From positions 1 through 64,000 of the forward strand of contig JBCBZT010000041.1 in the NCBI GenBank assembly GCA_039815185.1: 64,000 nucleotides of DNA, written 5' to 3'. Made by a program: the position numbers and the translations under genes. Of this stretch, positions 16,957 through 34,893 are shown in pieces. Positions within the stretch are counted from its first letter, which is position 1. Every line of letters starts with the position of its first letter. Origin of the DNA: Cyanobacteria bacterium P01_A01_bin.123. Its GTDB lineage: Bacteria > Cyanobacteriota > Cyanobacteriia > Phormidesmidales > Phormidesmidaceae. The notes beneath the pieces are model-generated. The model saw only the letters and a program-made list of their open reading frames with translations. It was not told the origin of the DNA and searched no databases.

Positions 16957-17184
16957 TTCGGTGTATCGTGATCGTTTTCATTGTTAGATATCTTGAACAA
17001 GTGAACGATGACTCGAAATACAATTGATAACGACATGGAGACAGAGTCTTTTTTGAAACTTGGAGTTTTAGCATCAGGAAAGACTGTGGGTCTGGATGTG
17101 GACGCGGTTTAAACAGCTGCTGCAATCCGTCAAAACTACATATGATTGAGCATATAAAAAGCTTTGTAGGCTGCCATGTGCCAA

Positions 17185-17228
17185 ACGACCAAAGCTCTCG
17201 TGGCCAAAAGTCATGTGTCCAATGGCTA
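17185..17228. promoter_or_regulatory. Candidate NarL-type boxes in the divergent promoter
   Basis: ACGACCAAAGCTCT (17185) and TGGCCAAAAGTCAT (17201) resemble the 2794-2853 motifs. Confidence 0.45.
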
Positions 17229-17306
17229 ACACTGCTAAGCATCGGATGAGGTGTTATTCTTTACCGTTAATTTTGATAGGGTTAAGTTGCGCTCAGGTTT
17301 TCTCCC

Positions 17307-18674
17307 ATGGCTCAGGCATTGAACCTCCTTTATCAGCGTTACCGCTTGATTGCCTTATCGGTGTATGCAGCCGTGCTTCTGGCAGGGCTTGTAGACTGGA
17401 TGTACGGCGGTATTGGGCCGAGATCTGTCGTAGATGCACCCGCGACCTATCGTTTCTTGCTTTTCGTGGCAATCGTACTTGTGCTGATAGGACTAGAGCT
17501 GCGGGCCGTGGGTAAAGCTAATTTTGTACATTCAAATAAGGTTGAATTCATTCCCTTTTTCGTTAGGGTATTTCTCTTTATCTGCGCTTGCTTAGTCACC
17601 GACCTTTCCTACTCGCAAATTCTTTTTTTACCCCTCCTTTTGTATAGCTACTTAGCCATCAATAAACGCCTGAGCTATTTCATCGCTATCTTGGGGGTCA
17701 CAGCCCTTTTGGGCTTGAGGCTGTCTGGCTTTGGGGGCATGAGGGTGCCACCGCCGCCCTTAATCAATGGCGCACCTCATGTTGAGATCCCCAATGGCAT
17801 ATCTAACAATGGCCGATTACGGGGAAGCAGACCCATTGATGAAGGCATGGGCTCGCTGATTACGCTATTTTTCACGCTGCTGTTAGCCCGAGCCATGTCC
17901 CAAGCTATTCAGGCCCAGCAAAAACTCACTGGATTACTTGCTTCACTCGAAGCCTCCCATCAGCAGTTGAAACAGTATTCCACTCGTGTTGCTGATTTAG
18001 CCGCCACTGAAGAACGTAATCGGTTGGCACGCGACATCCATGACAGTCTTGGGCATCATTTGGCGGCGATTAATATTCAGTTGGCAAAGGCCAACGCCTA
18101 TCGAGAACGCGATCCAAACCGCGCCTATGAAGCAGTAAAGTACGCGCAACGCACTGTACAAGATGCTTTAAAGGATGTGCGTGCATCGGTCAGTAGTTTA
18201 CGGCAAGGCAGTGAACCCTTTTTATTCCAGGAGGCGCTCGACGATTTACTGCAGCGAATGCGCCACGGTGAACTTGAGCTAACGCTCCATCAAACAGGAG
18301 ACAGCTCACGCTACAGCAAGCTTAAGCTGATGAGCTTGTACCGGGTGATTCAAGAAGGGCTGACCAATGTGCACAAGCATGCCAATGCTAGCCGAGCGAC
18401 CATAAAGTTAGATTTTGGGTCTCAAAAAGCCACGCTAGAACTGGTAGACGATGGTTCTGGTTTTGATGTGGCCGCGTGGAAATCGAGGGCAAATGCACAA
18501 ACGACCCAGGGATTAATCGGCTTACAGGAACGGCTGAGTTTGGTGGGCGGCACCCTTGACATCAACAGCCAGTTCCGAGAGACCAAGCTGACGATCAGGA
18601 TTCCTCAGGCCCATTCTCAGCCCCAATTTCTGGCTCAATTTCTGGCTAGTTCAAATACGGAGTCAATAACATGA
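17307..18674 (+). CDS. Membrane sensor histidine kinase, HisKA_3 type
   Basis: Multiple TMs; ERNRLARDIHDSLGH; QEGLTNVHKHA, DDGSGF, GLIGLQER. Confidence 0.92.
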   Translation: MAQALNLLYQRYRLIALSVYAAVLLAGLVDWMYGGIGPRSVVDAPATYRFLLFVAIVLVLIGLELRAVGKANFVHSNKVEFIPFFVRVFLFICACLVTDLSYSQILFLPLLLYSYLAINKRLSYFIAILGVTALLGLRLSGFGGMRVPPPPLINGAPHVEIPNGISNNGRLRGSRPIDEGMGSLITLFFTLLLARAMSQAIQAQQKLTGLLASLEASHQQLKQYSTRVADLAATEERNRLARDIHDSLGHHLAAINIQLAKANAYRERDPNRAYEAVKYAQRTVQDALKDVRASVSSLRQGSEPFLFQEALDDLLQRMRHGELELTLHQTGDSSRYSKLKLMSLYRVIQEGLTNVHKHANASRATIKLDFGSQKATLELVDDGSGFDVAAWKSRANAQTTQGLIGLQERLSLVGGTLDINSQFRETKLTIRIPQAHSQPQFLAQFLASSNTESIT

Positions 18675-19324
18675 CAATAAAAATCCGCATTTTGCTGGTT
18701 GATGATCAGTACCTGATTCGAGAAGGGATTGCCTCTTTACTAGAACTTGAAGAGGTCGTTGAGGTGGTGGGTATAGCAGCCAATGGCAAAGACGCGATCG
18801 CAAAAGCCCTTGAGCTAAAGCCTCATATTACGCTCATGGACGTGCGCATGCCTGAAATGAATGGGGTTGAAGCAACCGCAAAAATTAGACAAGCCGTGCC
18901 CACTTGCCAAGTGATTATGCTGACCACTTTTGACGATGAAGAGTTTATTGTGCAGTCACTCCTGGCGGGTGCATGCGGTTATCTGATGAAGGACATTCCC
19001 CCTCAAGATCTGATACAGGCGATCAAGCTTGCCCATGCGGGTGTGTTTCAGTTAGCACCTGAAGTCGCAGGCAAGCTCATTGGCGCGCTAAAAGACAAAC
19101 AAGCGTCTGTCAGCTCCAAGCCTCAAGTTGAGACGCCGCTAACCGCGAGAGAGCTGGAGGTGCTGAAATTAATCGCCAAAGGAACCCCTAATAAAGGCAT
19201 TGCCCAAGTACTCAATGTGAGTGAAGGCACGGTCAAAAATCACGTTTCTAATATTTTGATGCGGCTTGAACTAAAAGATCGAACCCAGGCCGCTATCTAT
19301 GCGGTGGAAAATGGTTTGAGCTAA
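18671..19324 (+). CDS. NarL/LuxR-family response regulator
   Basis: LVDD, LMDVRMP, LTARELEVL..NK.IA..L..SEGTVKNH; ATGA overlap with the kinase. Confidence 0.93.
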   Translation: MTIKIRILLVDDQYLIREGIASLLELEEVVEVVGIAANGKDAIAKALELKPHITLMDVRMPEMNGVEATAKIRQAVPTCQVIMLTTFDDEEFIVQSLLAGACGYLMKDIPPQDLIQAIKLAHAGVFQLAPEVAGKLIGALKDKQASVSSKPQVETPLTARELEVLKLIAKGTPNKGIAQVLNVSEGTVKNHVSNILMRLELKDRTQAAIYAVENGLS

Positions 19325-19442
19325 GAAATACTCATTGATTTAAGGCTTGAGAAGCCTGTTGGAATGCGTGATTGAGCGAGAAAATTTCTACTGGGCAAAG
19401 TGACCAAAGTTACAAGTGGAAGGTTAACCTTCATTGATGAGA

Positions 19443-20327
19443 TCAGTCAGCTTCTGGAGTGAAGGGACAATATTCGATCCGGTTTTTGCCGCTGCGTTTG
19501 ACTGTTTTCATTAACTGGTAGGCTTGCTCTAAAATCTGGATTGCTTGCTCCGGGGTGTGATGCTCAAAACTCTCTTCTGGCGGGCAGTTAAAGCTAAGCA
19601 ACCCAATGCTGAAGCCCACACGCCAGTCGGCCTGTTGACTCAGGGCGCACAGATCTCGATAGATACGAACCATGACGGCTTTGGCGGCGTTTTGGTCGCT
19701 GTGGGGCATGAGGATGGCGAACTCGTCGCCGCCAAGGCGAGCCAGCACATCGGTATTGCGCAAGGCAGTTTGAATGCTGTGGGCGATTTGTTGCAACACG
19801 CGATCGCCAAAGGCATGACCACCGCGCTCATTGAGGGCTTTGAAGTTGTCTAGGGCAATGTAGGCCAAAGCTAGAGGATAGCCATACCGACGCGATCGCT
19901 CCTCCTCTTGAGTCAGCGATGCCAAGAAAAATCGACGATTTGCCACCCCCGTTAGCCTATCGGTACGCGACTCATGATTTTCTCGCTCATGGGCAGTTTT
20001 CAAAGCTGCCAAGCTGGCACTGACGACCCCAAACACACCGAGTCGCATCACTGCATTCCAAAGGTGAAATCCAAGTGCAATCTGGGGTTTCGAGGCCAGA
20101 TCAGACGACATCCAGACCAGGATAGACAACAGTGACAGGACAGTCCCCATTTGCCCATTGATAAACCATGCAGCAAGGCTAATGGGCAGCAAATAGAAGA
20201 ATGCGAGTGAGAGGTCAGGCGTGAGGATGTAGTCAACCATCCCCACCAGCACCACTAACATCAGACTTAGCCCAACGATGCAACCGTTAGGCTGTCTTTC
20301 CAGCCCGCGCAACAGCCAATGCTTCAT
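19443..20327 (-). CDS. Membrane GGDEF-domain protein (DUF4118-like N-terminus)
   Basis: Four TM segments, DRLTGVANRR, RLGGDEF; IALDNFK where IDLDNFK is expected. Confidence 0.88.
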   Translation of the reverse strand: MKHWLLRGLERQPNGCIVGLSLMLVVLVGMVDYILTPDLSLAFFYLLPISLAAWFINGQMGTVLSLLSILVWMSSDLASKPQIALGFHLWNAVMRLGVFGVVSASLAALKTAHERENHESRTDRLTGVANRRFFLASLTQEEERSRRYGYPLALAYIALDNFKALNERGGHAFGDRVLQQIAHSIQTALRNTDVLARLGGDEFAILMPHSDQNAAKAVMVRIYRDLCALSQQADWRVGFSIGLLSFNCPPEESFEHHTPEQAIQILEQAYQLMKTVKRSGKNRIEYCPFTPEAD

Positions 20328-20365
20328 ACCGCGATCGCCCCTGAGGTCATCCAGTTAAGATTTTC

Positions 20366-23300
20366 TCACTCAGGGCGACTTTGCTGCTGTAATGACTCCT
20401 CTTGTTGTTTGATTGCAGCCAGCAACTCGGCATTTTGAATAATCACGCCGACTTGGGTATTGAAAATTTTCAAACACTTGCGATCGCCATCGTCAAAGCT
20501 AGTGCGAAAGATATCGGGCACTTCTCCCGGTTGCAAGCTTTGATAGTTGGGTCGATCTGACGATTTTTTCTTGTTGATTAACTGGGTTACCCCAATCAGC
20601 TCCCCATCTGAATCCACGATCGGCATACATAGCAGGCTACAGGTGCGGTAACCCGTGCGGCGGTCAGTGGCTTTCGACTGAACAGCATCAGGGTGGTCGT
20701 AGAGATCAAAGGGAATATTCAAGACTGCTCCCGTCGCGGCAACGCGTCCGGCAAATCCTTGCCCAATCGGCAGCCGAAATTCTTGGAAGTGACCCTGCTC
20801 AACCATAATTTTGGTGCGCAGTTCTTGGTTCTGGGCGTCCAACAGCCACAAACTGCCCCGATCGGCCTGCATCAGATCCTTGGCAGCTTCAATCACCCGA
20901 TCTAAGAGTTCGGCGGGGTCGACATTGGCTTTATCCAGCGATCGAGTGGCGGCCATCAACGCTGCGGCCACCCGCTGACCCCGAGCGGTTTTATGGTAAG
21001 CGCAGAAACTCTCCAACACCAACTGTATGGATGCTGCATCTGCCGTCAGTTTGGCCACATCCGCTGAGGTAAATCCGGCAGGATCAATGCGTGCCGCCAA
21101 CGGCGCATCGGGCGGGCAGTTGGGTTTTTGCTTATTCAGCAACTGCACCACGGCCACCAGTTTATGATCAGGATTGGTCATCGGCAGGGCCAGCATGGTG
21201 TAAGTCCGATAACCATTTTTGGCATCCTGCTGTTTGGCAGTTACCGAACGGGCATCATCATAAAAATCGTAGGGAATGTTGATCAAGGCTTTGGTTGCGG
21301 CGACTTCACCCACAATGCCTTGATCCATGGGTACCCGGATCTCCAATGACGTTTTGCTATCGCCCGCTTCGGCAATGATCGTCCAAAATTCTTGGCGTTC
21401 TTCATCCAGCAAAAAGATCGACGTGCGATCGGCTCCGACGGCCCGCTTTAGCTTTTGTGTAATCGAGTTGAGGGTGGTATCAAGGATTTCGTCAAAGCCC
21501 TGGGTATCCATGACTTGATTGAGCAGGGCCAAGGTGCGACTGACTACGGTTTGGGGATGGTCAGTGGCTTGGGCCTTGAGGGCGGCAAACTGTTTGGCAT
21601 TGTGCAACGCTACCCCCACTTGGGAATTAAACACCGCCATGTGTTGCTGGCTGCCGGGGTCAAAACTGGCTCTAAAGCACTCCGGGGCTTGGGGCCATTG
21701 CGTTGAGTCATAGGGCGGCAAGTTGCCCAATCGTCGCTTATTAACCAGCTGGGTCACCCCGAGCAGTTCATCGTTGGGGCTGAACACGGGCATACACAGT
21801 AAACTACACGTCCGGTAGCCTGTGCGCTGATCGGTTTCGTAGGCCGTTTTGGAATCGGGATGTTCGTGGAGATCAAAGGGAATATTCAGCGGTTCTCGGG
21901 TTTGGGCCACTTGTCCGGCATAGCCCTGGCCCACTTTCAGCCGAATCTCTTGGGGTTGGCCCTGTTCGTTAACCAATTTGGTCCACAGTTCAGTGCCATC
22001 TTCGTTGAGCAACCACAGGGTACTGCGGTCGGCATTCATCAGTTTCTTGGCCGAATCCATCACCCGATAAATAATTTCGTCAGGATCGAGGCTGCTTTGG
22101 GATAGGGAGTTAGCGGCTTCATTCAGGGCTTCTGAAGCTTGTAATCGCTGAGTCAATTGATAGCAATATTGACATCGTTTGAGCACTCGTCGAATGGGTT
22201 CAGCATACTGGTGAAATTGCTGTTCGTCAGCTGGGGTAAACCCTTGGGGATTGAGCTTTTCCTGCAGCGGACTATCGGCTGGATAGGTCGGCTGAATTTT
22301 GTTAGCCAGGTGGACAAACGCGACGGTAACACCATCTTGATCGAGCAGGGGTAAAAATCGTTCATCGTAAATCGGATAGTCTGCTTCCTCGGACTGGATT
22401 TGGGCAGCAGCGCCGGGGCTAACCCACTGCTTAAAGCCTTGCTGACCCTGGGCAGGGGCACTGTTGAGAATGTGAATTTTGGGATAGGTTTTGATGCCGT
22501 TTTCGGCCACGATTGACCAGAGTTCGTTTTTGATCTGATCCACATAAAAAATTGAGACCCGATCTACGCTGAGCATTTCCCCCAGCTTGAGCACAATCTC
22601 ACTCAAGACTTCATTGAGAATGTAATCTAAGCCTTGCCCTTCCATCAGGCTGAGCATCGACAACAGCTTTTGCTCTTGCCGTTCCACAATCCGCATAAAG
22701 TCTGAACGCAGACTGACTAGGGCCCGCTGGGCCCAACCCAGGTTAAACACGGTGGCGTAGATGCGGTTATAGACCTGTAAGCGGCTGTCGCGTTTAACGA
22801 CAATACCCGCCATTTGCAGCTCAATTTGTTCGCTAGAGATGGTCGCAGGCACAGATCCCTGGGCTAAGATTTCCTGGTATAGCCGCAGCATTGATCCAGT
22901 TTTTTCCCGCAGCAGCAGCAAGCGATCGCGGATGACTTTTAGATGGGGGGGTTCGTCTTGGGCCTCCCAATTGTTGATCACCTCAGTCTGTACCAGTTGA
23001 TCAATCCAGGCTACGGTATCTTGAGGGGGGGAAGCCGTTTGGCTGACGACAAATTGGCACAGCTTTTGGGTCAAAAAGGGCTGGCCTCCGGTCCAGTCGA
23101 GAATGGCAGCTAGGGCAGTTTGGGGATCGTTGACCTTATCTGCGAGTCCTTTGGCCAGGGGTTGGGCTTCTTGCCACTGGAAGCCCTGTAAATCGATCGG
23201 ACGCCCTACGTTGAATGGGGTCGTGTCTGCCGATTGAATCAGTTCTGCTGGGGTGGCGACACCCAGTAAGGCAAAGGTGAGCCGTTCGTAGTCATCGCAG

Positions 23301-23797
23301 GCGCGAATGAAGACAAAGAAATCGTCCAGACAAAAGGGCAGACTACGGGCGGCGTCAATTTCGTCAATAAAGATCACGATGGGCGATCGCACCGTTTTGA
23401 GCAAAACGGTTTCAATCAGCTCGCTGAGCCGCTCTACCGGGGGCAAAAACTGCCGCTCTTGTAGCCACAGGCGCAACTGAATAGGGAGCTGAAAGCTCGT
23501 CACCAATCGTCGCATCACCCCGGCATACCACTGGTCGCGGGTAATGTCTTGACTACCGATTTTAGTGAGATCGATGGCGGCACACTTGACCCCCTTTCGC
23601 CGCAGGCGATCCATGGTGCGCACCCGCAGACTGGTTTTGCCCATTTGCCGAGAATTTAAGACGTAACAAAATTCTCCGGCTTTGAGCGCAGTATACAGTT
23701 CATGATCCGCTTGACGCACAACATAGCTGGGATCATGGAGGGGGAGATGGCCCCCCACTTTATAGCGATAGGTAGACACAAGGGGAGACAAGATCAT
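20366..23797 (-). CDS. AAA_35 ATPase fused to four CyaB-type GAF domains
   Basis: [45 protein letters not shown] motifs [25 protein letters not shown]. Confidence 0.88.
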
Positions 23798-25761
23798 AGA
23801 CAGCTAGCCGCTAAGGGTGGATCCGACGTCTTAGGAGGATGGGCCTGGAGGCGATCGCGAAAGTAGTGACGATACAGATTAAAACTCGGAACCACACCAT
23901 TGCCCTGCAAGCGCACCAGGCCTAAACTTTGAAGCTTAAAGGTGCATTCTGAATCTAGGGATAAGGGGCCCAACGCTTGTAAAACGGCGCTGTAGGCCTG
24001 AGCCAAATCGGGGTGTTGCTCCAAAAACCACAGGTGACGGCGTAAATGGTCGCCGTAAATCCCGGCCTCTGTCGGTGCTGTTTGACACAGATCGCTCAGT
24101 GTAATTTGGTTTTGCACCACAGAATACAGGGCCAGCCGAATCAAATAAGGATGCCCGCCTACCAGCGTCGTCAAGGTTTCCACCTGTTGGGGAGTCCAGT
24201 CTAAACCGTGGCGATGGGCCAAATCAGTTACCTGCGATGCCGTAAAGGCCAACAGTTCGATCGGTAGCCCGACATTAAAAGGAGACTGATTTACGTCTAG
24301 GGGCAAATAAACCTCGGTCGAATGCACCACGACCAGCCGTAGCTTTTCCCAAAGTTCACTGTCATCACTGCCATAGCTAGCCTCTTCATACCAAGCCCGC
24401 AGCAAGCCAAAGAAATCATCGGCAATTTGGGGATACTGAAACACTGCATCCACTTCATCCAGGCCCAGCACCAAAGGGCTGTCTATTTCGGGGAGGAGGT
24501 AATCTTCAAAATAAGTGGTGCAGTTGTCTTTACTCCCATAGGTATCCACCCAATACTCATCTAAGCGCGGGGGGAGGTGGAGCTTACGGGCCACCTTCGT
24601 GCAAAACCATTGCAATAAACTGCCCAGATTTTCAAATACGGCTCGATCCGCATGTTGAAAACTGATGGGAATTGCCTGATAGCCTTTTTCACGCGCTTGA
24701 TGGAGAATCCGTGCCATCAGCGAGGTTTTGCCCATTTGGCGCGGTGCTTTGAGCCGAATTAATGCCCCAGGGCGGCCAATTGCCTCATAACATTGGGCTT
24801 CATAAGGCACTCGATCCACGTAAAAAGCAGACGCTAAGCGAACCTGGCCCCGAGGGATTTCAGGTTCCGCCGCGGGGAGTGGATAGGCGGGGGAGGAGAT
24901 GGGCTCGGGGCAAGTCTCAGGGCGGTTGGCTTCAAATGGGAGAGCGGCAGGTTGAGCTGCATCGGTGGGTGCAGTCGGCGCTGGAACCTCAGGGCCAAAT
25001 TGTAAAGTTTCTAGAGTGACTGGCGGGGGATAGACGGTCCCTAGGGGGATCCCCAACTGTTGTTGAATCTCATGAACTAACGGTTGGATCGCTTGACCGA
25101 GTTGCCATCGCCACACCAATGCATCCGTCAGGTAATGGCGCAAATCGTGACTCAGCAGCAAATCTTGGGGACAATCCACCAAAATCACCACCAGTAAAGG
25201 ATCATCAGTGTCGTCTTCATGCCGTCCCTGCCGTAACCGTTGCAGTTGCTCCACCGCCATTTCACTCACGGCAGTTTGGGCAGACAACAACAGCACAAAG
25301 CAGTCACAGTGCTTCAGGGCCAGATCGATTGCCGTGCAGTCTGCGCCATCGGGCTGTTGTTGCTCCCCGGTTGAGGGCAATGACGCGATCGCATCTAAAT
25401 TACTCGCAAAGGAGACATGACCTGCTAACTGCATCGCACCACTCAGACCATCAGCTAAATCGCAGTCGGGGGGATGCCCACGATAGCTGATGAAAATATG
25501 CTTTTGCCGCTTTAGCAATCGCTCTAGGGCACCCTTAACTCGCTTCTTAGTGACCTTCTCGCCCAAGGTGTCAGAAAGCTTTTGCCAAAGTCGATAGCCA
25601 ACAGTTTTCTCGACGTACTCAGGATTGTGCGGATAAATTTTCTCGTAGGTCAGATTGTTCCAAGAGCCGACAAAAACTTGACGTTCAAGATCATTCAAGT
25701 GCTTATCAGTATTGGCGTAGACCAGCTGATCAACTAAGTGTAGTGCTTCGTAAACATCCAT
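23794..25761 (-). CDS. HTH-TIR-like-AAA_35 ATPase
   Basis: N-terminal [39 protein letters not shown]...[41 protein letters not shown]. Confidence 0.85.
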
Positions 25762-26368
25762 TGCGTTGGACAGGTAGAAAGAATTAGTCAACGTGAGTTG
25801 GGCAAGTTGATCACTCAACTCAAAACCAAACCTTAAGCACACCCTTCCGTCTGTGATAACACTGATCTCAAGATTAAAACAACCACATTTTATCCTTCCT
25901 TCGTCTTAATTTACTGAAAAGCAAATCTTGCCACAGCTCGGTCATTTGCCACAGTCAACCATCAGTCACGACTGGTAGAGGTTTTGACCTTTGATCTTCA
26001 ACCCCAACCAATTTTAAAATTTGTGCCAGGGGGCAGGCTTCATACTCCCATAAGGAAAAACTATCGTTCTGGATGCAAAAAGGTTGATCAGAGATTTTAT
26101 TAGGTTTTATGAGTAACGATGATCTTGCTTAAGGCATAGTCATTGTGGAAACAGATAGAAATAGACAGGAATTAGCGCTGCGATCGCGATGCTGATTCAA
26201 TTCATAGGCGAAGACTATCCTTATCTATGCTCAAGTCAGTTATTTGGGATCAAAAAACTAATTCCACTGAGGTTTTATGGTTGTCAGAGGATAGCTTATC
26301 CGTAAGGATAGACAACATATTCAGCTTATACGAAATCGTCACTAGTTTACATAGAATAAACCGCTACG

Positions 26369-26390
26369 AACAAGGGGTTAAGCCCCCTTG
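26369..26390. repeat. Short palindromic repeat/hairpin
   Basis: ACAAGGGGTTAAGCCCCCTTGT. Confidence 0.5.
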
Positions 26391-26551
26391 TCTCCTGTGG
26401 CTTCGCTGGAGGCAAGCATTAAGTGAAAGCACTGAATTATCGTTTGAAATAGTTCTCAGAATTGAAAGTTGAGAGGATGCTAAATCATTAGGTCATCATC
26501 CTTTTCTGGTTGAACTAAAATCTCATGTGAAATTATCGAGGAGTCATCATC

Positions 26552-26755
26552 ATGGTCAGAATAGCCTCAGTTTTTTCCTTCATTAAAGACTTCTGTTCGG
26601 TGCCTACAAAAGGTACTCAACAATGGGTTCAATCATCATCCCTATGCTCAGGCTCAGGCACAGAATCAGCTTACGATGTCGTGTTTACACCAAATGAATT
26701 TTTGGCTGCTCATTTACTGCTTGAAAATCAACCTCGGCCACATTCAAATTTGTAG
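26552..26755 (+). CDS. Small hypothetical protein (67 aa)
   Basis: GAGGAG RBS 8 nt upstream; same orientation as, and upstream of, the NfeD-like gene. Confidence 0.55.
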   Translation: MVRIASVFSFIKDFCSVPTKGTQQWVQSSSLCSGSGTESAYDVVFTPNEFLAAHLLLENQPRPHSNL

Positions 26756-26762
26756 TTTTCCT

Positions 26763-26791
26763 GTAGGGATGCAGCACCAGGCATCCCCTAC
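26763..26791. repeat. GTAG-type REP-like hairpin
   Basis: GTAGGGATGC-AGCACCAG-GCATCCCCTAC just after a stop codon. Confidence 0.55.
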
Positions 26792-26842
26792 TCAAGCGTT
26801 CGAACTGGATGGAGTTTCGTAACAAATTTTGGAGTTAAGGTT

Positions 26843-27064
26843 ATGAGTCGCAATCCTATTTTTCCCGTGACGCCTTTTAAAGTCCCTGCGATGGGGTTGA
26901 TCGATCGCCCGGTTCAGAGCGACGGCCAAAGGGGTCGTATCCGATACGATGGTACAACCTGGTTTGCTCAATCGTATCGGGTAGGGTTGACGTTTTCCAT
27001 CGGGCAATCTGTTTCTATTGTGGCCCGACAGGGAAATACGCTGCTGGTTTTACCTAGCACATAA
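26843..27064 (+). CDS. Stand-alone NfeD C-terminal OB-fold protein
   Basis: GRIRYDGTTWFA ... GQSVSIVARQGNTLLV; no TM segment. Confidence 0.8.
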   Translation: MSRNPIFPVTPFKVPAMGLIDRPVQSDGQRGRIRYDGTTWFAQSYRVGLTFSIGQSVSIVARQGNTLLVLPST

Positions 27065-27127
27065 CGATTTACATTAGATGTGGTTTAGACTCTTTGGAGC
27101 AAGCCCAATTCAGGCTAAACCTCTGAG

Positions 27128-27874
27128 CTATTCAGATAGGTTTTCGCCATCACCGAAGATATCGGTGACCACTTCTGAAGAGGGAAAAAATCGAATCTGC
27201 GCATAGCTTGTATCACTCGTTTCTTCTAGCGTATCAAGGACAGCTTCAAGGGATAGCAGGGTAACCGAGACCTGATCGGCTAGGCCTTGACTTTCTAGGC
27301 GATCTAACAAGGGCTGCATATCTTGCAATTGGAAGAACATGGGAATAATCGCCTCTTCTTCATTGCTAACATTAACGGTGAGTAGCGTCTGATCATCATT
27401 GAAGCGCACAACAAACAACGGTACACCTTCAAAATTTTCGTCAAATTCGACCGCAATGCGCTGTTGACTAAATGACGGGATGTAGACAAAGTCCAAACTC
27501 AACTCTCGATCTGCCGTCCCATTTTCCCGGTTCTGAATTTCGTCAGTGGTTTGGCTGTACAAATCTCCGAGCCAAATCACTGCAATTTGGGCATCGTCAG
27601 AAAACTCACTGTTGCCTTCTTCTTCGGCAGCCGCAATGAAGGCTTCAGCGCCTTGGCGTTCCATAAAAACGAGTGGTGTTTCTTGATTTTCATCAGAGGC
27701 CAGCAGCGGATTTCCCGTTTCATCCACCAAGATAAAGACAGGTACCGTTGACAATTGCTCAACGACCACTGCGGTGTCTAAGGCCAATGCCCGCTGTACG
27801 TTAACAGCCATGGATCCGACTAAAACACTCCCTAATACACTGAGGGCGGCAACCCCACGGAATAAGAATTTCAT
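27128..27874 (-). CDS. Tic22-like periplasmic protein
   Basis: Signal peptide ending ALAL; LSTVPVFILVDETGNPL; FEGVPLF; IPMFF. Confidence 0.8.
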   Translation of the reverse strand: MKFLFRGVAALSVLGSVLVGSMAVNVQRALALDTAVVVEQLSTVPVFILVDETGNPLLASDENQETPLVFMERQGAEAFIAAAEEEGNSEFSDDAQIAVIWLGDLYSQTTDEIQNRENGTADRELSLDFVYIPSFSQQRIAVEFDENFEGVPLFVVRFNDDQTLLTVNVSNEEEAIIPMFFQLQDMQPLLDRLESQGLADQVSVTLLSLEAVLDTLEETSDTSYAQIRFFPSSEVVTDIFGDGENLSE

Positions 27875-27945
27875 AGGCCTAGAAAAGACTCGTTGACAAC
27901 GTTGAACATTACTATCATATTTTGACCCACCCTAGCCTCGTGCGA

Positions 27946-28698
27946 TTACGCCGATGCAGCCATTAAAGGCATGGGTTCACGAGTAGCATTGAGACCGCTC
28001 AATGCCTGGTGTAAATCTTGGGTTAATTGGCGGGCGTTATCTTTTGTACATCCTGCTTTGTAACGGACTACCTTAAGCGGTTTGCCAATCACAATCTCAA
28101 CGTCTGTTCCCCAAGCGGGACAAGATTGGTTGTAATGAAGACTAACGGGTATGATGCTTACCCCGAGATCAAGGCTAGAGGCTTCAGCTTGAAGAGCCAT
28201 TCGGGCTAATCCCGGTTTTAGCGATCGCACTTCTTCCCCTCTAAAAATGCCGCCTTCTGGAAAAATGACGATCATTTCTCCTTGGCGCAATAGATCGACC
28301 CCGTGACGCAGGGTGGCAATCGAAGGGCGATGAACATTAACGGCAAAGCCCCCCAAACGACGAATAAACCACCCTTGAACCCCCTTAACTTCGTCAGCAG
28401 TAACCATAAAGCGCAGGTCTCGACCCGAGACGTGGCGACCTGTGGCATAAGGCAACAATAGGGCATCCCAACGGGAACGATGGGTGGGGGCTAAGATGAC
28501 TGGCCCCTCAGTGGGAATATACCCCTGACCGGTGATGGTAATTTTGCCAAAAAAGTTGGGAACCACCATCCGACGCCCCAGGAAATAGGCTAACGGCGTC
28601 AACCAGGGCGATAGGCGGGACTCAACGGGTTGAAAGCGGTAAATAGATTTCTCCTGAATGGACTTGTTATGCATGACGGACGACAAGGTCATTACCAT
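27946..28698 (-). CDS. plsC: 1-acyl-sn-glycerol-3-phosphate acyltransferase
   Basis: PTHRSRWD (HX4D), IFPEG. Confidence 0.85.
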   Translation of the reverse strand: MVMTLSSVMHNKSIQEKSIYRFQPVESRLSPWLTPLAYFLGRRMVVPNFFGKITITGQGYIPTEGPVILAPTHRSRWDALLLPYATGRHVSGRDLRFMVTADEVKGVQGWFIRRLGGFAVNVHRPSIATLRHGVDLLRQGEMIVIFPEGGIFRGEEVRSLKPGLARMALQAEASSLDLGVSIIPVSLHYNQSCPAWGTDVEIVIGKPLKVVRYKAGCTKDNARQLTQDLHQALSGLNATREPMPLMAASA

Positions 28699-28837
28699 AG
28701 TGACGACAACAACAGCGAGGCAGCAACAGGGGTTACAGGCTTTAGAGTAAGGGGTTTGCCCCCATCAGTCATCCAGATGAGGACAGTTTTGTTGTTGTCA
28801 TCCCATTAGAGCCTGACAACCTGCCCTCAATTTTGCC

Positions 28838-29353
28838 TTAAGGAGACTGAAGTATGCTAGCCCGACGGTGGGCAAACCATTGCTGCAACTGTTGCCGACA
28901 GCTCTCTTCTAGGATGCCCCCGATGACGGGAAGACGATGATTGGAGCAGGGGCTATCAGGCAAATTCATCACAGTGCGCACAGCTCCTGTCTTTAAGTCA
29001 TCGGCACCATAAACCAATAGCCCTAACCGAGCCAAAATCAAAGCCCCAGCACACATCGGACAGGGCTCTAGGGTGACATAGAGGGTGCAGCGATTCAAAT
29101 GCCAGGTTGCTAACCGCTGTCCGGCTTGACGTAAGGCTAGGACTTCAGCGTGGGCTGTCGGGTCGTGGTCTCGCTGACGGCGATTGGCAGCTTCTGCAAT
29201 GATTTCATTTTCGGCATCCACAACCACTGCACCAACGGGCACTTCCCCAGCATTGCCCGCCGCTTCCGCTAGGGTGAGGGCATGCTGCATCCAGTGGCGA
29301 TGGCGCAAATAGACTTCGTTCTGGATAGGGGGGGGCGGTATTTCAAATGGCAT
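28838..29353 (-). CDS. tadA: tRNA adenosine(34) deaminase
   Basis: EVPVGAV, DPTAHAE, TLEPCPMC. Confidence 0.93.
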   Translation of the reverse strand: MPFEIPPPPIQNEVYLRHRHWMQHALTLAEAAGNAGEVPVGAVVVDAENEIIAEAANRRQRDHDPTAHAEVLALRQAGQRLATWHLNRCTLYVTLEPCPMCAGALILARLGLLVYGADDLKTGAVRTVMNLPDSPCSNHRLPVIGGILEESCRQQLQQWFAHRRASILQSP

Positions 29354-29367
29354 AGGCGTTTGGAGGG

Positions 29368-30669
29368 TTAGCTCGATTGGCGCAAGGAGGTTTTCATCAT
29401 CTTTAGGGCTAAGGCTAAGTTGGCCTGAGTCCAGAGTAGAGGGACGCTGTCGTTGGGGACATAGTGCCCGTGCTCTAGGTAGTACAGTTCTGGGCAGTGA
29501 TAGGGGAGTGCTGAGCTTTGTTCTCCCGTAATTTGGCCTAGGGCGCGGTTAAGATATTGGGTTTGCTGGATCAAGTCTTCAGGGTTGCCCTGGTGCTGAA
29601 ACTTTTGGCCGAAAATGGTAGATACGATGGGGTCAAACAGGCACCACTGGGCTTCTTCGCCAGGTTTCAGCAGGCGATCGCGCTCCTGTATCGTCTCACT
29701 AAAATCTGCCGTGCGGGTTTCTGCCGCGAGTTTTTGCTTATAGTTTGCACACCAGTAAGAATCGCCTGGGTAGCGTTTAATGCCGTGGGGGCCTTTGAGT
29801 TGTGTCAGTACGTTCTGGAGGATGATATCGGCTAAAGCCCCGCTAACCACCTGGAGAGGATAAATCAAAAACAGCAGGGCACTGTCGTAGGGCCGATGAG
29901 GATGATGCGACTCGGCAGGTAAAATCTGGTGCAGTCCTGTGGTGCCGCGATTGATCAACGCTTGAATTTGATCGGTATCGAACTGTTGCGCGATCGCGGT
30001 GGTTTCCAGTGTTAAACCGGCTAACCAGGCTTGTAGCGATCGCAGTCCAGCCAGCACCGTCCCGATGCTGGAGGCTTCGACTTTGGGGGCTTCTTCCCAG
30101 TGGCCATGGTCGGCATCTCGCCAGTACTCAATGGTTTGAAAATAGGGCGGAAATAGAGACAGGGTAGACAGGGCATCCGGTTGTAGGGTGATATGTCCCA
30201 ACCGCAATAGCTCACAGTAAAACCACAAAAAATAGCCCAAGGCGTCGTTTTGGGCATGGGGCCAAGGGTCGGGTAACGGGGCTAACGTTTCACCTATGAA
30301 TTTAATCGCGGGACGTTGGTACAAGTCGGTTGGGCTAACGGCTCCCATGAGAATGGCGTTAAACCGCGATCGCTGGCGATTAAAATGAACCATCACGGTT
30401 GTCATCGCCTGCACCGCGATCTCAACCTGTCCCGTTTGATAGTGGGCGTGGGCTACATGCACGGTATCGCGCACCCAGACACAACCGTATCCGGTGTAGG
30501 CCGTTGCCTCAGTTACCGCTGCCGCTGGAAATAACCCGTTAGCCAGGCGCGGAAACGTGAGGGTGCCCCACTGGTGTAGCTGTTGTTCAAGAAGATGGAG
30601 CGTGTCTAGGGTATACCCGGTTTGGATAAAGCCTTTGAGGCGATCGCAGTGAATAACGAGTTCAGCCAT
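29368..30669 (-). CDS. GH15-like / phosphorylase kinase alpha-beta family protein
   Basis: VWVRD, HAQNDALG, DHGHWEE, GIKRYPGDSYW, PLLWTQANL. Confidence 0.8.
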   Translation of the reverse strand: MAELVIHCDRLKGFIQTGYTLDTLHLLEQQLHQWGTLTFPRLANGLFPAAAVTEATAYTGYGCVWVRDTVHVAHAHYQTGQVEIAVQAMTTVMVHFNRQRSRFNAILMGAVSPTDLYQRPAIKFIGETLAPLPDPWPHAQNDALGYFLWFYCELLRLGHITLQPDALSTLSLFPPYFQTIEYWRDADHGHWEEAPKVEASSIGTVLAGLRSLQAWLAGLTLETTAIAQQFDTDQIQALINRGTTGLHQILPAESHHPHRPYDSALLFLIYPLQVVSGALADIILQNVLTQLKGPHGIKRYPGDSYWCANYKQKLAAETRTADFSETIQERDRLLKPGEEAQWCLFDPIVSTIFGQKFQHQGNPEDLIQQTQYLNRALGQITGEQSSALPYHCPELYYLEHGHYVPNDSVPLLWTQANLALALKMMKTSLRQSS

Positions 30670-31232: not shown

Positions 31233-32774
31233 TTATGCGTCAATGACTGCCTGTGCCGTGATCGGGGCATACCCGTCGGCCAGGGGAAAATGCTGTGCTA
31301 AGTAGACAAAGAAGCTATCCACAAAATCGGCCCCAATGCTGTAACCGCTCTCTAGACTGGTGCAGGCCCATCGCCAGGTGGGTAAATGGCCGCGCGGAGC
31401 ATCTACACCAAAGCGCAACTCGTGGTAAGCCTTGGTAACTTTGACAAAATCGCCCCAGCCCCAGCCTTCTTGCCAACCCACAGCTTGCAAAAAGGTTGCG
31501 GGTATTTTATCGACGCCTTCATAGACGGTTTGCTGTGCCGTCAAGCCAAAGCGGTTTTGACTGTAGCGCGCCCAAAGCTGATCAATCGTTTTTAAGTCGG
31601 TTTCTGGCAGATAGAGTAGCGTGTCGCGGCTGATGGGACGCATATCTTCACTGGCAATCTGCAAAATCATCCGTTCGGTTTCTTGATCGGCCTCTTGCCA
31701 CTTGCCTTGCCACAGCAACGACCGTAGGCGAGTGTAGTCGGCCCCGCGTTCAGAGGTAATACTGCCGTAACATTCCGCTGCCACTAACCATTCAATCTCG
31801 CGGGCTTCTTCTGGTGAAAGATGCCAATCTCGCCGCGCTTGCTCTAGGCGTCCTTGGTTAAAGTCGCTGATATCCAGGGAATTTTGAAGAATTTGTAAAC
31901 AAACCCCCTGGTAATTTTTGAGATTGGCCAGATGCTGCTGGGCTTCAGTCTCCTCAGTCGATTCCATCTGCACGGAGGCCGATTGCAACGTGGTGGTTTG
32001 ATCTTGTAGGCGGGTCACCTCGGCTTGGAGCTGGGTCACCTTAGCCTCAGCTTCATGGACGGTTAAGAGATATTGGGTCTCGATCGGTTCAATGTCGGCG
32101 TGGGTCAAGTTTAAACTTTCATAAAATCGCTTGAGTTCTGCTTGGGCTTCCTCTGTTAACGGGTAGTGATAAGCCACTTGATCGGCTAAAACCTCACGAT
32201 AGCGCTGGAGTTTTTCTTCGCGGTTGTGATATGGACCAAGGGCTTTGGCAATCATCTCCACCGCCGCGTTGGGTTCAATGTCTAACTGATGCTGCAACAA
32301 ATCGAGGTTAGCCTGAGCGACGGGCGAAATTTCGCCCTCACGGGCATAGTATTCGGCCCAGCCCTGGTATATCAGTGTCGGTGCTATAAGTTTTTCTACC
32401 AGGGGAATGTGGCGGGCAATCACGTCAGCATCGCAGCTATTGACTTGCATGACGCTTTCTCCGTGCTTAACCTGCAGTCGGGTTTGTAGGGGAGCGACCT
32501 TGAGGCGATCGCACAATTGTCCTAACACGGGCCGAATATGGCTGGCGTCCAAGGCGGGGGCATGAATGCCTTGACGGTAGGCGTGTCCTTCTGGGCTGCT
32601 TTGCTTGATGTAGCTCAAGCGGCCCATGCCTTTGAGCGCAAGCAGGCGTTGCGACAAAATTTCAACCTGCTCGGTAATATCAGCAGGATTGAGGTCAGCG
32701 TCGATAAATTGGATGGTGAGGTTGAGGGTGTTTGCCATCCGTTGGAGATCAGGAGCCATTGATATGCAGGCCAA
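31233..32774 (-). CDS. Multidomain protein: EACC1-like N-terminus, helical repeats, C-terminal GUN4 domain
   Basis: SERGADYTRLRSLL..GKWQEADQET, IDQLW..YS..RFG, APRGHLP; start may be slightly downstream. Confidence 0.78.
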   Translation of the reverse strand: MACISMAPDLQRMANTLNLTIQFIDADLNPADITEQVEILSQRLLALKGMGRLSYIKQSSPEGHAYRQGIHAPALDASHIRPVLGQLCDRLKVAPLQTRLQVKHGESVMQVNSCDADVIARHIPLVEKLIAPTLIYQGWAEYYAREGEISPVAQANLDLLQHQLDIEPNAAVEMIAKALGPYHNREEKLQRYREVLADQVAYHYPLTEEAQAELKRFYESLNLTHADIEPIETQYLLTVHEAEAKVTQLQAEVTRLQDQTTTLQSASVQMESTEETEAQQHLANLKNYQGVCLQILQNSLDISDFNQGRLEQARRDWHLSPEEAREIEWLVAAECYGSITSERGADYTRLRSLLWQGKWQEADQETERMILQIASEDMRPISRDTLLYLPETDLKTIDQLWARYSQNRFGLTAQQTVYEGVDKIPATFLQAVGWQEGWGWGDFVKVTKAYHELRFGVDAPRGHLPTWRWACTSLESGYSIGADFVDSFFVYLAQHFPLADGYAPITAQAVIDA

Positions 32775-32857
32775 AGCTGGCTATAGCGCGGATAATGCCC
32801 ACTGTTATACCAGCTATTGGCGATCGCGAACCAACGGGTTTCAGACTGTTTTTCGAG

Positions 32858-34684
32858 TTACCCCTTAATTCGAAATTCGTACTGTTGGCTGTCCATTGGC
32901 CGACCTAAAAAATAACCCTGGGCAAAATCACAGCCTAAAGCTTTGAGTTCGACTAATCCAGCTTCGGTCTCAACCCCTTCTGCGGTGACGGTCATGTCTA
33001 AGCTATGGGCCAGGTTAATGATGGCGCTGACAATTTTGGGGTTGAGGGTGCCTGTCGCTGGGGTGATAAAGGTGCGATCAATTTTCAAGTTTTGTACATT
33101 GAGCAGTTGCAGATAACTCAACGACGAATAGCCCGTGCCAAAGTCGTCAATGCTGACATGGATTTGACGCTGCTTGAGATGGTCTAGCACGTTTAAGACG
33201 AACTGATCTTTTTGCATCAAGCCCTCTTCTGTAATTTCTAGGGCTAAGTTACAACAGTCAGCTTGGGTCTCGCTCAAGATCCGGTCGAGGTGGTCAATGA
33301 AATCGGCTTGGGAAAGCTGTTGCGCAGACAGATTGACGTGTAGCCGAAACGTTTGGTCAATCAATTGACTGGTTTGCCACTGTCTGAGTTGGGTACAGGC
33401 TTGACGCAGCACATAGCGATCGAGGATAACAATTAGCCCGGTTTCTTCAGCAATGGAGATAAACTCCTCTGGCGGGATCACGCCGCGTTGGGGGTGGTGC
33501 CAACGCACTAAAGCTTCCATCGCTTCGATCGTATCTGTCGCTAGGGATTGGAGCGGTTGATAGACCAGACGTAGGTTTTGATTGGCGATCGCGATGTTGA
33601 GTTCATTTTGAATCGCAAAAAAATGCAGGGTGCGGTGGTGCATCGCTGGGTCAAACACCTGAATTTTGCCAGACCCTTTGATCTTGGCTTGCGACAGGGC
33701 CGTAGTGGCATCGCGCAAGAGATATTTGGGGTGCTCATAGGCAGCAGAATTTTGCACCAGACTGATACAAAGGGTGATGTAGATGGGCTGTTCTTCAATT
33801 TCAAAGGGTAAGCGCGTTTCACTTTGAATCGTTTTGGCCAGAGCTAGCGCTGTGGAGAAATCGGTACAGTTTTCTAGCAAGATGGCAAAGGTGTCATTGC
33901 CAAAATGGGCGAGTAAAACTTCCTTGCCTAAGCAGGTTTGCAAGCGACGCATGATAGAGACGATTAGCTGATCGCCAGCGGAATGACCCAGGGAATTATT
34001 GACGAGTCGGAGGTGTTCACACTCAATCATCATGAGGACCAATTTGCTTTTAGATTGGTGCAGCGTCTGGCTGAAAATTTGTCCCAGACGCTGCATCAAG
34101 AAAGCGCGATTGGGTAAATCCGTCAACCGATTGTGCGTGGCAACGTGTAGCAGTTGCTCTTGGGCTTTGAGGCGATCGCCAATTTCTCGCTCTAGCTGCA
34201 TTGTTCGTTGGATCACCCGTTGCTCTAGCTCGGCATTCAGTTGCTGTACCTGGGCCTTGGCTAACCGTAGATTCAGGTGGTTGGTGACCCGCGCAGTCAG
34301 TTCTTTCGCTTGAAAGGGTTTGGGAATATAGTCGATTCCCCCGACGGAAAATGCAGTCACCTTATCTTGAGTTTGGTCTAATGCACTCAGAAAAATAACC
34401 GGAATCTCCTGGGTTAAGGGATCGCTCTTAAGCCGTTGGCAAACCTGATAGCCATCCATATCAGGCATTTTGATATCGAGCAAGATCAAATCTGGCTGAG
34501 CAGCTTTAGCGACTTTGAGCGCAGTTGGACCATTCAGCACACTGCGTACCTTATGGCCCTGTCGGGTCAAAATTTTGGAAAGATATTCGAGGTTTTCAGG
34601 GATGTCATCAACAATCAAGATATCCCCTTGAATAGTCGTGGCCTGAGACGGGTCAACTCGGGAACTCATGGCAGCAGTAGCCAA
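32858..34684 (-). CDS. REC-GGDEF(degenerate)-EAL protein, probable c-di-GMP phosphodiesterase
   Basis: ILIVDD, LLDIKMP; FGNDTF replaces GGDEF; EALVRW, DDFGTGYSS, AEGVE intact. Confidence 0.9.
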   Translation of the reverse strand: MATAAMSSRVDPSQATTIQGDILIVDDIPENLEYLSKILTRQGHKVRSVLNGPTALKVAKAAQPDLILLDIKMPDMDGYQVCQRLKSDPLTQEIPVIFLSALDQTQDKVTAFSVGGIDYIPKPFQAKELTARVTNHLNLRLAKAQVQQLNAELEQRVIQRTMQLEREIGDRLKAQEQLLHVATHNRLTDLPNRAFLMQRLGQIFSQTLHQSKSKLVLMMIECEHLRLVNNSLGHSAGDQLIVSIMRRLQTCLGKEVLLAHFGNDTFAILLENCTDFSTALALAKTIQSETRLPFEIEEQPIYITLCISLVQNSAAYEHPKYLLRDATTALSQAKIKGSGKIQVFDPAMHHRTLHFFAIQNELNIAIANQNLRLVYQPLQSLATDTIEAMEALVRWHHPQRGVIPPEEFISIAEETGLIVILDRYVLRQACTQLRQWQTSQLIDQTFRLHVNLSAQQLSQADFIDHLDRILSETQADCCNLALEITEEGLMQKDQFVLNVLDHLKQRQIHVSIDDFGTGYSSLSYLQLLNVQNLKIDRTFITPATGTLNPKIVSAIINLAHSLDMTVTAEGVETEAGLVELKALGCDFAQGYFLGRPMDSQQYEFRIKG

Positions 34685-34893
34685 TAGGGCTCAGTGGTGG
34701 ATGAGGGCAAATGATGAAAAGGAACATCCTGGTAACATCACTGCGTTTGCGGAACTCAATAGGGAATCACTCAACCAAATAGCATCTCGCTTTGATGCCC
34801 AAAACCCATAGCTGGGATAGCCGTGTCTGGTTTAGTTTGAACCAAAACTCTGCCAAACACAAACTGCCCTAGTATTCCTAATTTTAATAGGTT

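Follow-up and report, generated by a model that had tools for sequence, protein, structure and literature searches.

STAND activators (signal transduction ATPases with numerous domains) of the MalT type are ligand-gated switches that hold a sensor, a nucleoside triphosphatase (NTPase) domain and a C-terminal LuxR helix-turn-helix (HTH) in one chain, and the paired nucleotide-binding leucine-rich repeat receptors (NLRs) of plants consist of a sensor and a helper or executor. A further family, Npun2340/2341 of the MNS clade, is said to have been defined by Leipe et al. in 2004, and we take the archaeal proteins PAB2304 and SSO1545 to be MNS-type. Here we describe a locus in a stretch of 64,000 nucleotides from Cyanobacteria bacterium P01_A01_bin.123 (GenBank assembly GCA_039815185.1, contig JBCBZT010000041.1, positions 1–64,000 of the forward strand), referred to below as the window. 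Two adjacent genes encode predicted STAND-like NTPases of the AAA_35 family. Gene A (23794..25761, minus strand; 655 aa from its ATG) combines an HTH, a TIR domain and a type-A AAA_35 NTPase, and is the predicted output subunit. Gene B (20366..23797, minus strand; 1143 aa), with a type-B AAA_35 NTPase and four GAF domains, is the predicted sensor subunit. The A–B module is a new variant of STAND signalling, the target of which was misassigned in an initial annotation of the same DNA.

The two genes overlap by the ATGA at 23794–23797, and a GGDEF gene starts 38 bp past the stop of B. Both features had been reported in the initial annotation, together with RQMGKTS, hhhhDE and PFNVG motifs in the two ATPases and their assignment to AAA_35, and all are borne out on re-reading the sequence and by profile search. 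The longest open frame of gene A begins with a GTG at 25842. Positions 22500–28884 of the window are also covered by a contig that another study obtained independently, with 225 differences (~96.5% identity), so an assembly error does not account for the layout. Relatives that bear a name are all cyanobacteria, and AAA_35 proteins are abundant in the filamentous members, as 4455 of the 8000 candidates that were scored proved to be related to A; a metagenome scan with protein A returned one locus. Within 17000–30000 of the window no structured RNA matched Rfam, and a sigma-70 promoter scan gave two sites against 3.1 expected. The genome of the window (8.1 Mb) is denoted G000, with C63 and similar labels for its contigs, and L and G numbers denote the other loci and genomes compared. 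Loci L067, L228, L234 and L238 belong to the unpublished genome G155, and L067 makes up one row in the TIR glutamate, CTCA, domain-tree, B-alignment, linkage and neighbour-clustering counts.

The AAA_35 domain of A (aa 303–635; 23857..24855, minus strand) matches the Pfam profile with 481 bits (E 1.4e-144), and that of B with 86 bits (E 3e-24) over aa 16–351, the curated cut-off being 27 bits. In A the domain displays Walker A and Walker B motifs, an invariant Arg455 and the PFN loop, and in B (aa 10–360; 22718..23770, minus strand) the motifs are likewise intact. Searched by sequence against solved structures, A gave no match under E 0.07. In the structural model of A (predicted local distance difference test score, pLDDT, 84) the closest folds are archaeal PAB2304 and SSO1545, followed by plant NLRs and Cdc6/ORC; residues 299–636 superimpose on 2qen with Z 17.7 and a root-mean-square deviation (rmsd) of 4.0 over 305 aligned residues, and on 2fna with Z 16.4. 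The conserved motifs and the alignment of the A model conform to the STAND layout, in which a P-loop with Walker A and B motifs is followed by helical and winged-helix-like domains. A and B are accordingly predicted to be STAND-like NTPases, where the aspect of switching and oligomerisation rests on one modelled A–B dimer.

A tree of 137 AAA_35 domains from the loci compared (58 type A and 79 type B; FastTree) resolves the two types as separate clades with support 100. Partner A and B domains are 22% identical, and their pairwise identities correlate (rho 0.73 over 52 pairs, kin not being independent). The window genome holds 12 AAA_35 matches above the cut-off, six strong ones of type A and six weak ones of type B, and five of its six type-A genes have a type-B gene within ~400 bp. 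The A/B pair is a general module and not unique to this locus; other pairs in the same genome bear caspase-TIR, GGDEF or HTH domains on A, and TPR or WD40 repeats on B. Both domain types occur in one open reading frame (ORF) in four single chains (L107, L110, L112, and L118). B proteins with four GAF domains were found at 39 loci (two duplicates dropped), 33 of which had enough flank to be judged; in 24 of these 33 a type-A gene lies upstream.

Variants of the arrangement were also seen. Other genes (DUF4058, RusA-like, AHJR-like, GHL10) are inserted between A and B in L067, L075, L076, L077, L081, L082 and L087, and at G000:C35:166433-172833 two B genes come after A, the product of one being a bare NTPase of 382 aa and that of the other having WD40 repeats. 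Locus L058 (6087-13122) encodes a kinase-A and a B-GAF-GAF-PAS protein with an FHA-GAF-adenylate cyclase gene upstream, and in L098 a TIR-A protein is fused to a cyclase. The single-chain genes of L110 and L118 have 10-bp-period repeats of their own upstream.

Modelling of the two ATPases together, a check proposed with the initial annotation, predicted an interface between the NTPase domains of A and B with a score of 0.65, compared with 0.00 for the best of three controls. Among solved complexes 116 of 157 come up to this mark, as do 2 of 215 mismatched pairs, counts that apply only roughly to alignments of our own. Between runs at least 90% of the contacts coincide, and the pLDDT of the partners is at least 84. 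The predicted contacts comprise the invariant Arg455 and Asn496 of A, and Thr55 and Glu146 of B, residues of its P-loop and Walker B motif. This would fit a head-to-tail association at the nucleotide site of B, as in AAA+ oligomers.

The B proteins offer a natural test that agrees with such a complex. Of 35 aligned B proteins, five lack the Arg of the P-loop as well as the DEID motif and PFN loop. Four of these belong to the nine loci without A and have at least 4.5 kb of upstream sequence; the fifth has no flank. In the three genomes with decayed B that were checked, type A is either missing or represented by a single distant copy (36–41%). In L072 the B motifs are intact and a cognate A is encoded elsewhere in the genome. 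These observations bear on the proposal that B serves chiefly as a buffer or scaffold for cyclic nucleotides and can act alone, with A as an autoregulated factor and the linkage reflecting co-regulation and not signal transfer. B proteins with four conserved GAFs do persist in genomes without a cognate A, and in G151 an HD gene (see below) together with A is separated from B. Set against this, the NTPase motifs of B decay without A and remain intact where A lies elsewhere, and fusions as well as the predicted interface join the two, which makes an independent B very improbable to us.

The N-terminal part of A was described in the initial annotation as an HTH-TIR arrangement ahead of the ATPase, a description that agrees with the profile and fold data. 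Residues 1–86 (25504..25761, minus strand) form a helical, putatively HTH_VMAP-M9-like domain that we predict to be the reader of the upstream repeats described below. The assignment builds on a precomputed match to PF26355 (HTH_VMAP-M9) and on the nearest Atlas clusters, which are HTH_VMAP-M9 at 0.89 and serve as a lead only; local Pfam scans gave no match in this region, to PF26355 or otherwise. The helices are modelled at pLDDT >90 and are strongly conserved in 21 orthologs, and the structure search returned no solved DNA-binding relative of the domain. The following segment (aa 87–236; 25054..25503, minus strand) is weakly recognised as TIR by sequence (TIR_2, E 7.6e-5, below the cut-off), but its modelled fold matches the RPS4/RRS1 TIR with Z 13.4 and rmsd 3.0 over 132 aligned residues. 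The catalytic Glu of TIR domains, in helix C, presumably belongs to the motif S-x-W-x-x-x-E-L; in the window copy this position is occupied by Gln172, and the TIR domain is for that reason probably not an NADase. Among 21 orthologs the Glu is kept in 13 and replaced in eight.

If A and B formed a defence or cell-death system akin to paired NLRs, B would sense a cyclic-nucleotide alarm during infection, A would oligomerise, the TIR domain would degrade NAD+, and the HD protein would set the threshold. The 13 orthologs that retain the Glu agree with such a function, as do fold matches that include plant TIR-NLRs and Avs proteins, the caspase-TIR, TPR and WD40 domains of sister pairs in the window genome, and the citation of this NTPase class in conflict systems in the accessible part of PMC8195603. 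We nevertheless consider it rather improbable, given the eight orthologs without the Glu, the Gln in the present protein, and the GAF-bearing variants L059 and L163 that have no TIR; moreover, no PADLOC family (2023 library) matched five window proteins at E 0.01, and the sole neighbour that recurs in 23 loci is the HD gene.

Beyond its NTPase domain, B consists of the GAF-A/GAF-B pair of CyaB2 repeated twice in tandem (1ykd, E 1.3e-133; second tandem E 6.4e-128), and a Pfam scan identified no catalytic domain. In the first tandem (aa 375–745; 21563..22675, minus strand) GAF-A is degenerate, with a mean identity of 0.42 compared with 0.58–0.65 for the other GAF domains and with the region around Asp356 absent, and the GAF-B pocket is intact; in the second (aa 752–1135; 20393..21544, minus strand) both pockets have the conserved Arg and Asp. 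The initial annotation was thus right about an ATPase with four GAF domains and no enzymatic output, but since the first GAF is degenerate there are three intact pockets and not four. According to the accessible text of PMC4411481, the pocket of CyaB2 is formed by Arg291, Thr293, Ile308, Asp356 and Asn359. Mapped onto B by alignment, with the offset counted by hand, equivalents of Arg291 and Asp356 are present in GAF 1B, 2A and 2B of all 35 B orthologs, and a Thr or Ser occupies the 293 position. On the basis of these residues B likely binds cyclic adenosine monophosphate (cAMP) through three CyaB2-type pockets, and its guanosine counterpart (cGMP) would also be possible.

The one gene that recurs next to GAF-bearing pairs encodes an HD protein of the NF045583 (Npun_R2479) family. 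Of 19 loci that could be judged, 17 have it divergently upstream of A. To be judged, a locus needed a flank of at least 1.5 kb or an HD gene seen, which slightly favours the count; the corresponding number is 0 of 34 for loci whose B lacks GAF domains. Clustering of the neighbours in 23 loci yielded no other recurrent partner. Members of the family as such are encoded in 71 of 121 genomes of the class. Three of six linked HD proteins scanned pass the 400-bit cut-off of NF045583. Searching from the HD side, the 30 top-scoring loci have no AAA gene within 1.5 kb, whereas 4 of 16 chosen low-scoring paralogs adjoin A and B-GAF, and a fifth does so across a contig end.

A model of the L071 copy of the HD protein (pLDDT 94) retrieved class I cyclic-nucleotide phosphodiesterases at ranks 1–17 of 48,161 chains (Z 16.7–14.6, rmsd 3.4–4.9, 225–251 residues aligned), the next HD protein having Z 13.7, and the Foldseek list is made up of class I phosphodiesterases throughout. 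The His and Asp residues of the metal site (H-x3-H / HD / D) are invariant in 13 of 13 proteins and are present in the C63 copy of the window genome. By sequence, no Pfam match to PDEase_I was obtained for six HD proteins, and the HD protein matched no solved structure. We regard the protein as a putative class I-like cyclic-nucleotide phosphodiesterase, a lead at the level of the fold.

In the window itself tblastn at E 1 revealed no remnant of an HD gene. The window genome has three HD paralogs, on C15, C94 and C63, and the HD gene is not visible in the window because it is on another contig in this genome. The copy on C63 (38524-39447, minus strand), which matches NF045583 over its full length but with 355 bits against the cut-off of 400, is the candidate for a relocated target.

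Upstream of A we find two candidate operators, each the top match of its matrix in the window genome. Motif 1 (26264..26284, minus strand; consensus AACCAGAAAANCTCA) was scored with a matrix trained on relatives only, and motif 2 (26085..26115, minus strand) is composed of direct repeats of ~10-bp period with the unit CTCATAAAAN. The upstream regions of 20 A genes contain AAAACCTC in 15 cases against a shuffle maximum of 7; motif 1 is found within one mismatch in 15 of 19 relatives, and the array also comprises 10-bp-period repeats. Taken by itself the window sequence is less distinctive, as its generic period-10 score of 14 is no higher than the best score among shuffles (14), and the two matches to the two-unit repeat pattern are equalled or exceeded in 13 of 100 shuffles. 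The CTCA core is present upstream of 19 of 22 A genes that have the HTH of A, and in 1 of 30 other type-A rows. It is absent in all three HD-linked loci in which A has a different N-terminus. In two of these, where the N-terminus was scanned, the usual domain is replaced by a Cro/XRE-type HTH, so that a DNA-binding domain is kept on A even when it is swapped.

When the motif-1 matrix (15 relatives) was run over the window genome, rank 1 fell on window position 26284 (21.2 bits) and rank 2 on C63 position 39775 (19.9 bits), which is 327 bp upstream of the C63 HD gene and has the strand orientation of HD-linked loci. The other two HD paralogs score under 0. With ranks 1 and 2 at A and at the C63 HD gene, the data point to a regulon that is split in this genome, where motif 1 is retained at A–B as well as at the HD gene, whose usual place is taken by an unrelated NfeD gene. 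A comparable situation exists in G157 (one 5.8-Mb contig), where A–B lacks the motif and an HD gene 0.8 Mb away has both motifs. For the 42 HD loci that were initially taken to be unlinked, scores above 5 bits on that strand were obtained with L166 and L165. The former turned out to be linked, and in the genome of the latter the HTH of A was not found at E 1e-12. Split regulons such as these help to tell the target from mere neighbours.

It is also conceivable that A–B senses a cyclic nucleotide while some other transcription factor reads the repeats, the pair acting on the HD enzyme or other proteins by contact, with the HTH and TIR domains as interaction surfaces. In favour of this, no solved DNA-binding relative of the N-terminal domain of A was found, motif and HTH go together by common descent, and CRP-type boxes (consensus from the accessible text of PMC2633013), which occur with one mismatch in 7 of 27 upstream regions, the window's not among them, could give cAMP control without A. 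However, the motif is missing where A has another N-terminus, and its two best sites lie at A and at the HD paralog and not in a wide regulon. We judge this alternative unlikely. A CRP box upstream of A in the window was considered and dropped, the best site having two mismatches (shuffle P 0.46). A CRP-like pattern derived afterwards from the one-mismatch boxes has seven occurrences in the window genome, one of which (40023) precedes the C63 HD gene by 576 bp, and three of the seven, with the same reservation about the choice of pattern, precede AAA_35 or HD genes. Such boxes are found at C131:7528, where a type-A AAA_35-GGDEF gene follows at 85 bp, and at C43:198587, ~170 bp ahead of a weak AAA_35-like gene.

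Some further upstream features may be mentioned. A short near-palindrome (25853–25862) lies ~100 bp before the ATG of A, and at the same distance in L055 and L068. In the HD-linked loci L059 (9268-11780), L163 and L169, B has two GAF domains and the HTH of A is of the Cro/XRE type; L059 and L169 have an upstream motif of another kind in common. In G157, L246:12645 is a motif-1 site of 26.2 bits near which no HD or A gene was identified, and which may represent a further target. The HTH family of A recurs in other G000 proteins, encoded on C3, C5, C15, C44, C70, C107, C119, C121 and C124; GTCGG/GACGG repeats were noted by eye upstream of those on C119 and C124, but the impression that such paralogs have repeats of their own was not clearly borne out by a repeat scan.

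Based on these data we propose that cAMP binds the GAF domains of B, the A–B NTPase complex switches, and the HTH of A regulates the phosphodiesterase-like gene in a feedback loop, a scheme that we hold with evenly balanced confidence. cAMP would be taken up by the three CyaB2-type pockets and drive nucleotide exchange and oligomerisation of the A–B complex, whereupon several A HTHs could bind the repeats head-to-tail, one helical turn apart. Induction of the phosphodiesterase would then lower cAMP as negative feedback, and the same array could serve for autoregulation of A–B. That the two ATPases are a pair, one sensing and the other binding DNA, had been put forward in the initial annotation, and is supported here by the linkage, the fusions, the predicted interface, the decay of B without A, and the motif that tracks the HTH of A. 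The module thereby becomes a testable circuit with a candidate ligand, partner, operator and target. If correct, it would provide a cAMP receptor of new build, name a class I-like phosphodiesterase for the widespread HD family, and exemplify a bacterial sensor/executor STAND pairing that serves gene regulation. A broader view, which we offer tentatively and with less than even confidence, is that heteromeric STAND pairs act in filamentous cyanobacteria as a kinase-free two-component system with swappable B sensors (GAF, WD40, TPR) and A outputs (HTH, TIR, caspase, GGDEF, kinase, cyclase), of which the present member would be a CRP-independent cAMP receptor regulating an animal-type class I phosphodiesterase, with an operator readable from sequence.

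A number of observations weigh against the proposed circuit. As for the pairing, B with four GAFs has no adjacent A in 9 of 33 loci, the B motifs in L091 are intact though no cognate A was found in its genome, and the decayed B genes represent two lineages only. The complex score, obtained for the A:B hetero-pair, may stem from a resemblance to AAA+/STAND oligomers of solved structure (ORC/Cdc6, resistosomes). In both GAF-B copies (1B and 2B) Asn359 of CyaB2 is replaced by Thr or Ser, so that cGMP may be bound as well as cAMP. The HD protein has 10–14% identity to the phosphodiesterases, helical models can reach Z 13–14 by common arrangement, and the model is of the L071 copy and not of the C63 copy. 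A quick tree does not unite the linked HD genes in a single clade with support; with linked copies unresolved and the C63 copy placed, without support, beside L055 and L165, the tree is no proof of orthology. Motif-1 scores of 19–21 bits are also reached by chance somewhere in the genome, the best scores of column-shuffled matrices being 18.6–25.0, and the support from motif 1 therefore lies in where ranks 1 and 2 fall (4.3e-5 for each top hit and strand of 700 nt); the rank-3 site (19.2) is inside a coding frame. The co-occurrence of motif and HTH is not independent evidence, since the two share ancestry, and in G156 A has motif 1 while neither HD gene has it.

In the initial annotation the switch was thought to act on the divergent 67-aa ORF and soluble NfeD gene, with the GGDEF gene as part of the setting. 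Both divergent frames are present, and the 73-aa product of the NfeD gene is confirmed as a family member by Pfam (E 2.4e-9). The 67-aa ORF is doubtful as a real gene: it has one marginal match (E 0.007) in the genomes of 60 relatives, profile scans assigned it to no family, and its exact sequence is absent from a 15-billion collection. A survey of the neighbourhoods L052–L130 and L161–L177 found no match to the 67-aa ORF, the membrane part of the GGDEF gene, Tic22 or the acyltransferase beside orthologs, and a single NfeD match, in a locus without AAA genes. Among 29 other NfeD loci, one has an HTH of A's N-terminal family nearby, in co-orientation. The proposed action on the two divergent genes is thus not supported, nor is inclusion of the GGDEF gene, and for want of recurrence we rejected NfeD, the 67-aa ORF, the GGDEF gene, Tic22, the acyltransferase and an 81-aa ORF at 26227 as members of the system. 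The switch could still regulate the 67-aa ORF and NfeD in place of the HD gene, at least in this lineage, given that motif 1 is 268 bp from the ORF and 559 bp away from NfeD, distances that fall in or close to the range of 76–417 bp observed for HD genes, and that the arrangement recurs in the close strain from another study. Against the negative survey, the lone co-oriented HTH and the lack of a credible homolog of the ORF, this appears quite improbable.

The GGDEF gene (19443-20327, minus strand) encodes a membrane protein with the GGDEF motif at aa 199. An Ala occupies what we take, from the motif, to be the first metal-binding Asp, and the protein may be catalytically weak. Elsewhere in the window, positions 50018–53698 (plus strand) encode an unusual fusion of PBP-like, WD40 and DUF4912 domains, and 31233–39840 (minus strand) is an ordinary signalling cluster with a GUN4-domain protein, a receiver-GGDEF-EAL protein and a 1648-aa Cache-PAS-GAF hybrid kinase.

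The literature searched, including PMC11119718, PMC4411481, PMC7159879, PMC8195603, 10.64898/2026.01.04.697583, PMC4284465 and PMC2633013 in their accessible parts, with subscription papers and supplements outside the scope, contains no account of the module and no functional study of AAA_35 proteins; these genes may appear in the source data of PMC7159879 and PMC8195603 or in the STAND preprint, in its clade tables. The accessible text of PMC8195603 uses the name "MNS clade (Npun2340/2341 family)". If AAA_35 is this family, which is an assumption, a pairing like that of A and B may have been noted already in 2004, because the family name consists of two adjacent Nostoc gene numbers. The fold of A is closest to the archaeal PAB2304 and SSO1545, but the GAF sensor, the HD partner, the operator and the mechanism were not found in the literature searched for that family.

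Compared with Anabaena CyaB2 (1ykd), B has the same tandem of GAF-A and GAF-B with the Arg, Thr/Ser and Asp of the cAMP pocket, and ~50% identity to a CyaB-type cyclase. It differs in that the tandem is doubled and joined to an NTPase in place of PAS and cyclase domains, the first GAF is degenerate, and Asn359 is replaced in the GAF-B copies. The HD protein resembles class I cyclic-nucleotide phosphodiesterases in its best structural matches and in the H-x3-H / HD / D metal-site pattern, but differs in its ~280 aa, an identity of 10–14% and the lack of a Pfam PDEase_I match. In its accessible text, a review names only slr2100 as a cyanobacterial cGMP phosphodiesterase (PMC4284465).

As for MalT-type activators, A–B would be a ligand-gated STAND switch with an HTH output and a predicted oligomer on repeated boxes, and 8bob is among the fold matches of A. 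Unlike these activators, the sensor and the HTH are located on two NTPase subunits, the HTH of A is N-terminal and of another family, and the sensor is a GAF array. The similarity to paired NLRs and TIR-NLRs (RPP1, WRR4A, RPS4/RRS1) concerns the two linked STAND genes, the predicted division into sensor and executor, and the TIR domain that precedes the NTPase. The A–B pair departs from them in that it has no leucine-rich repeats, the TIR Glu is not conserved, the output is seemingly transcriptional, and the signal would be a second messenger.

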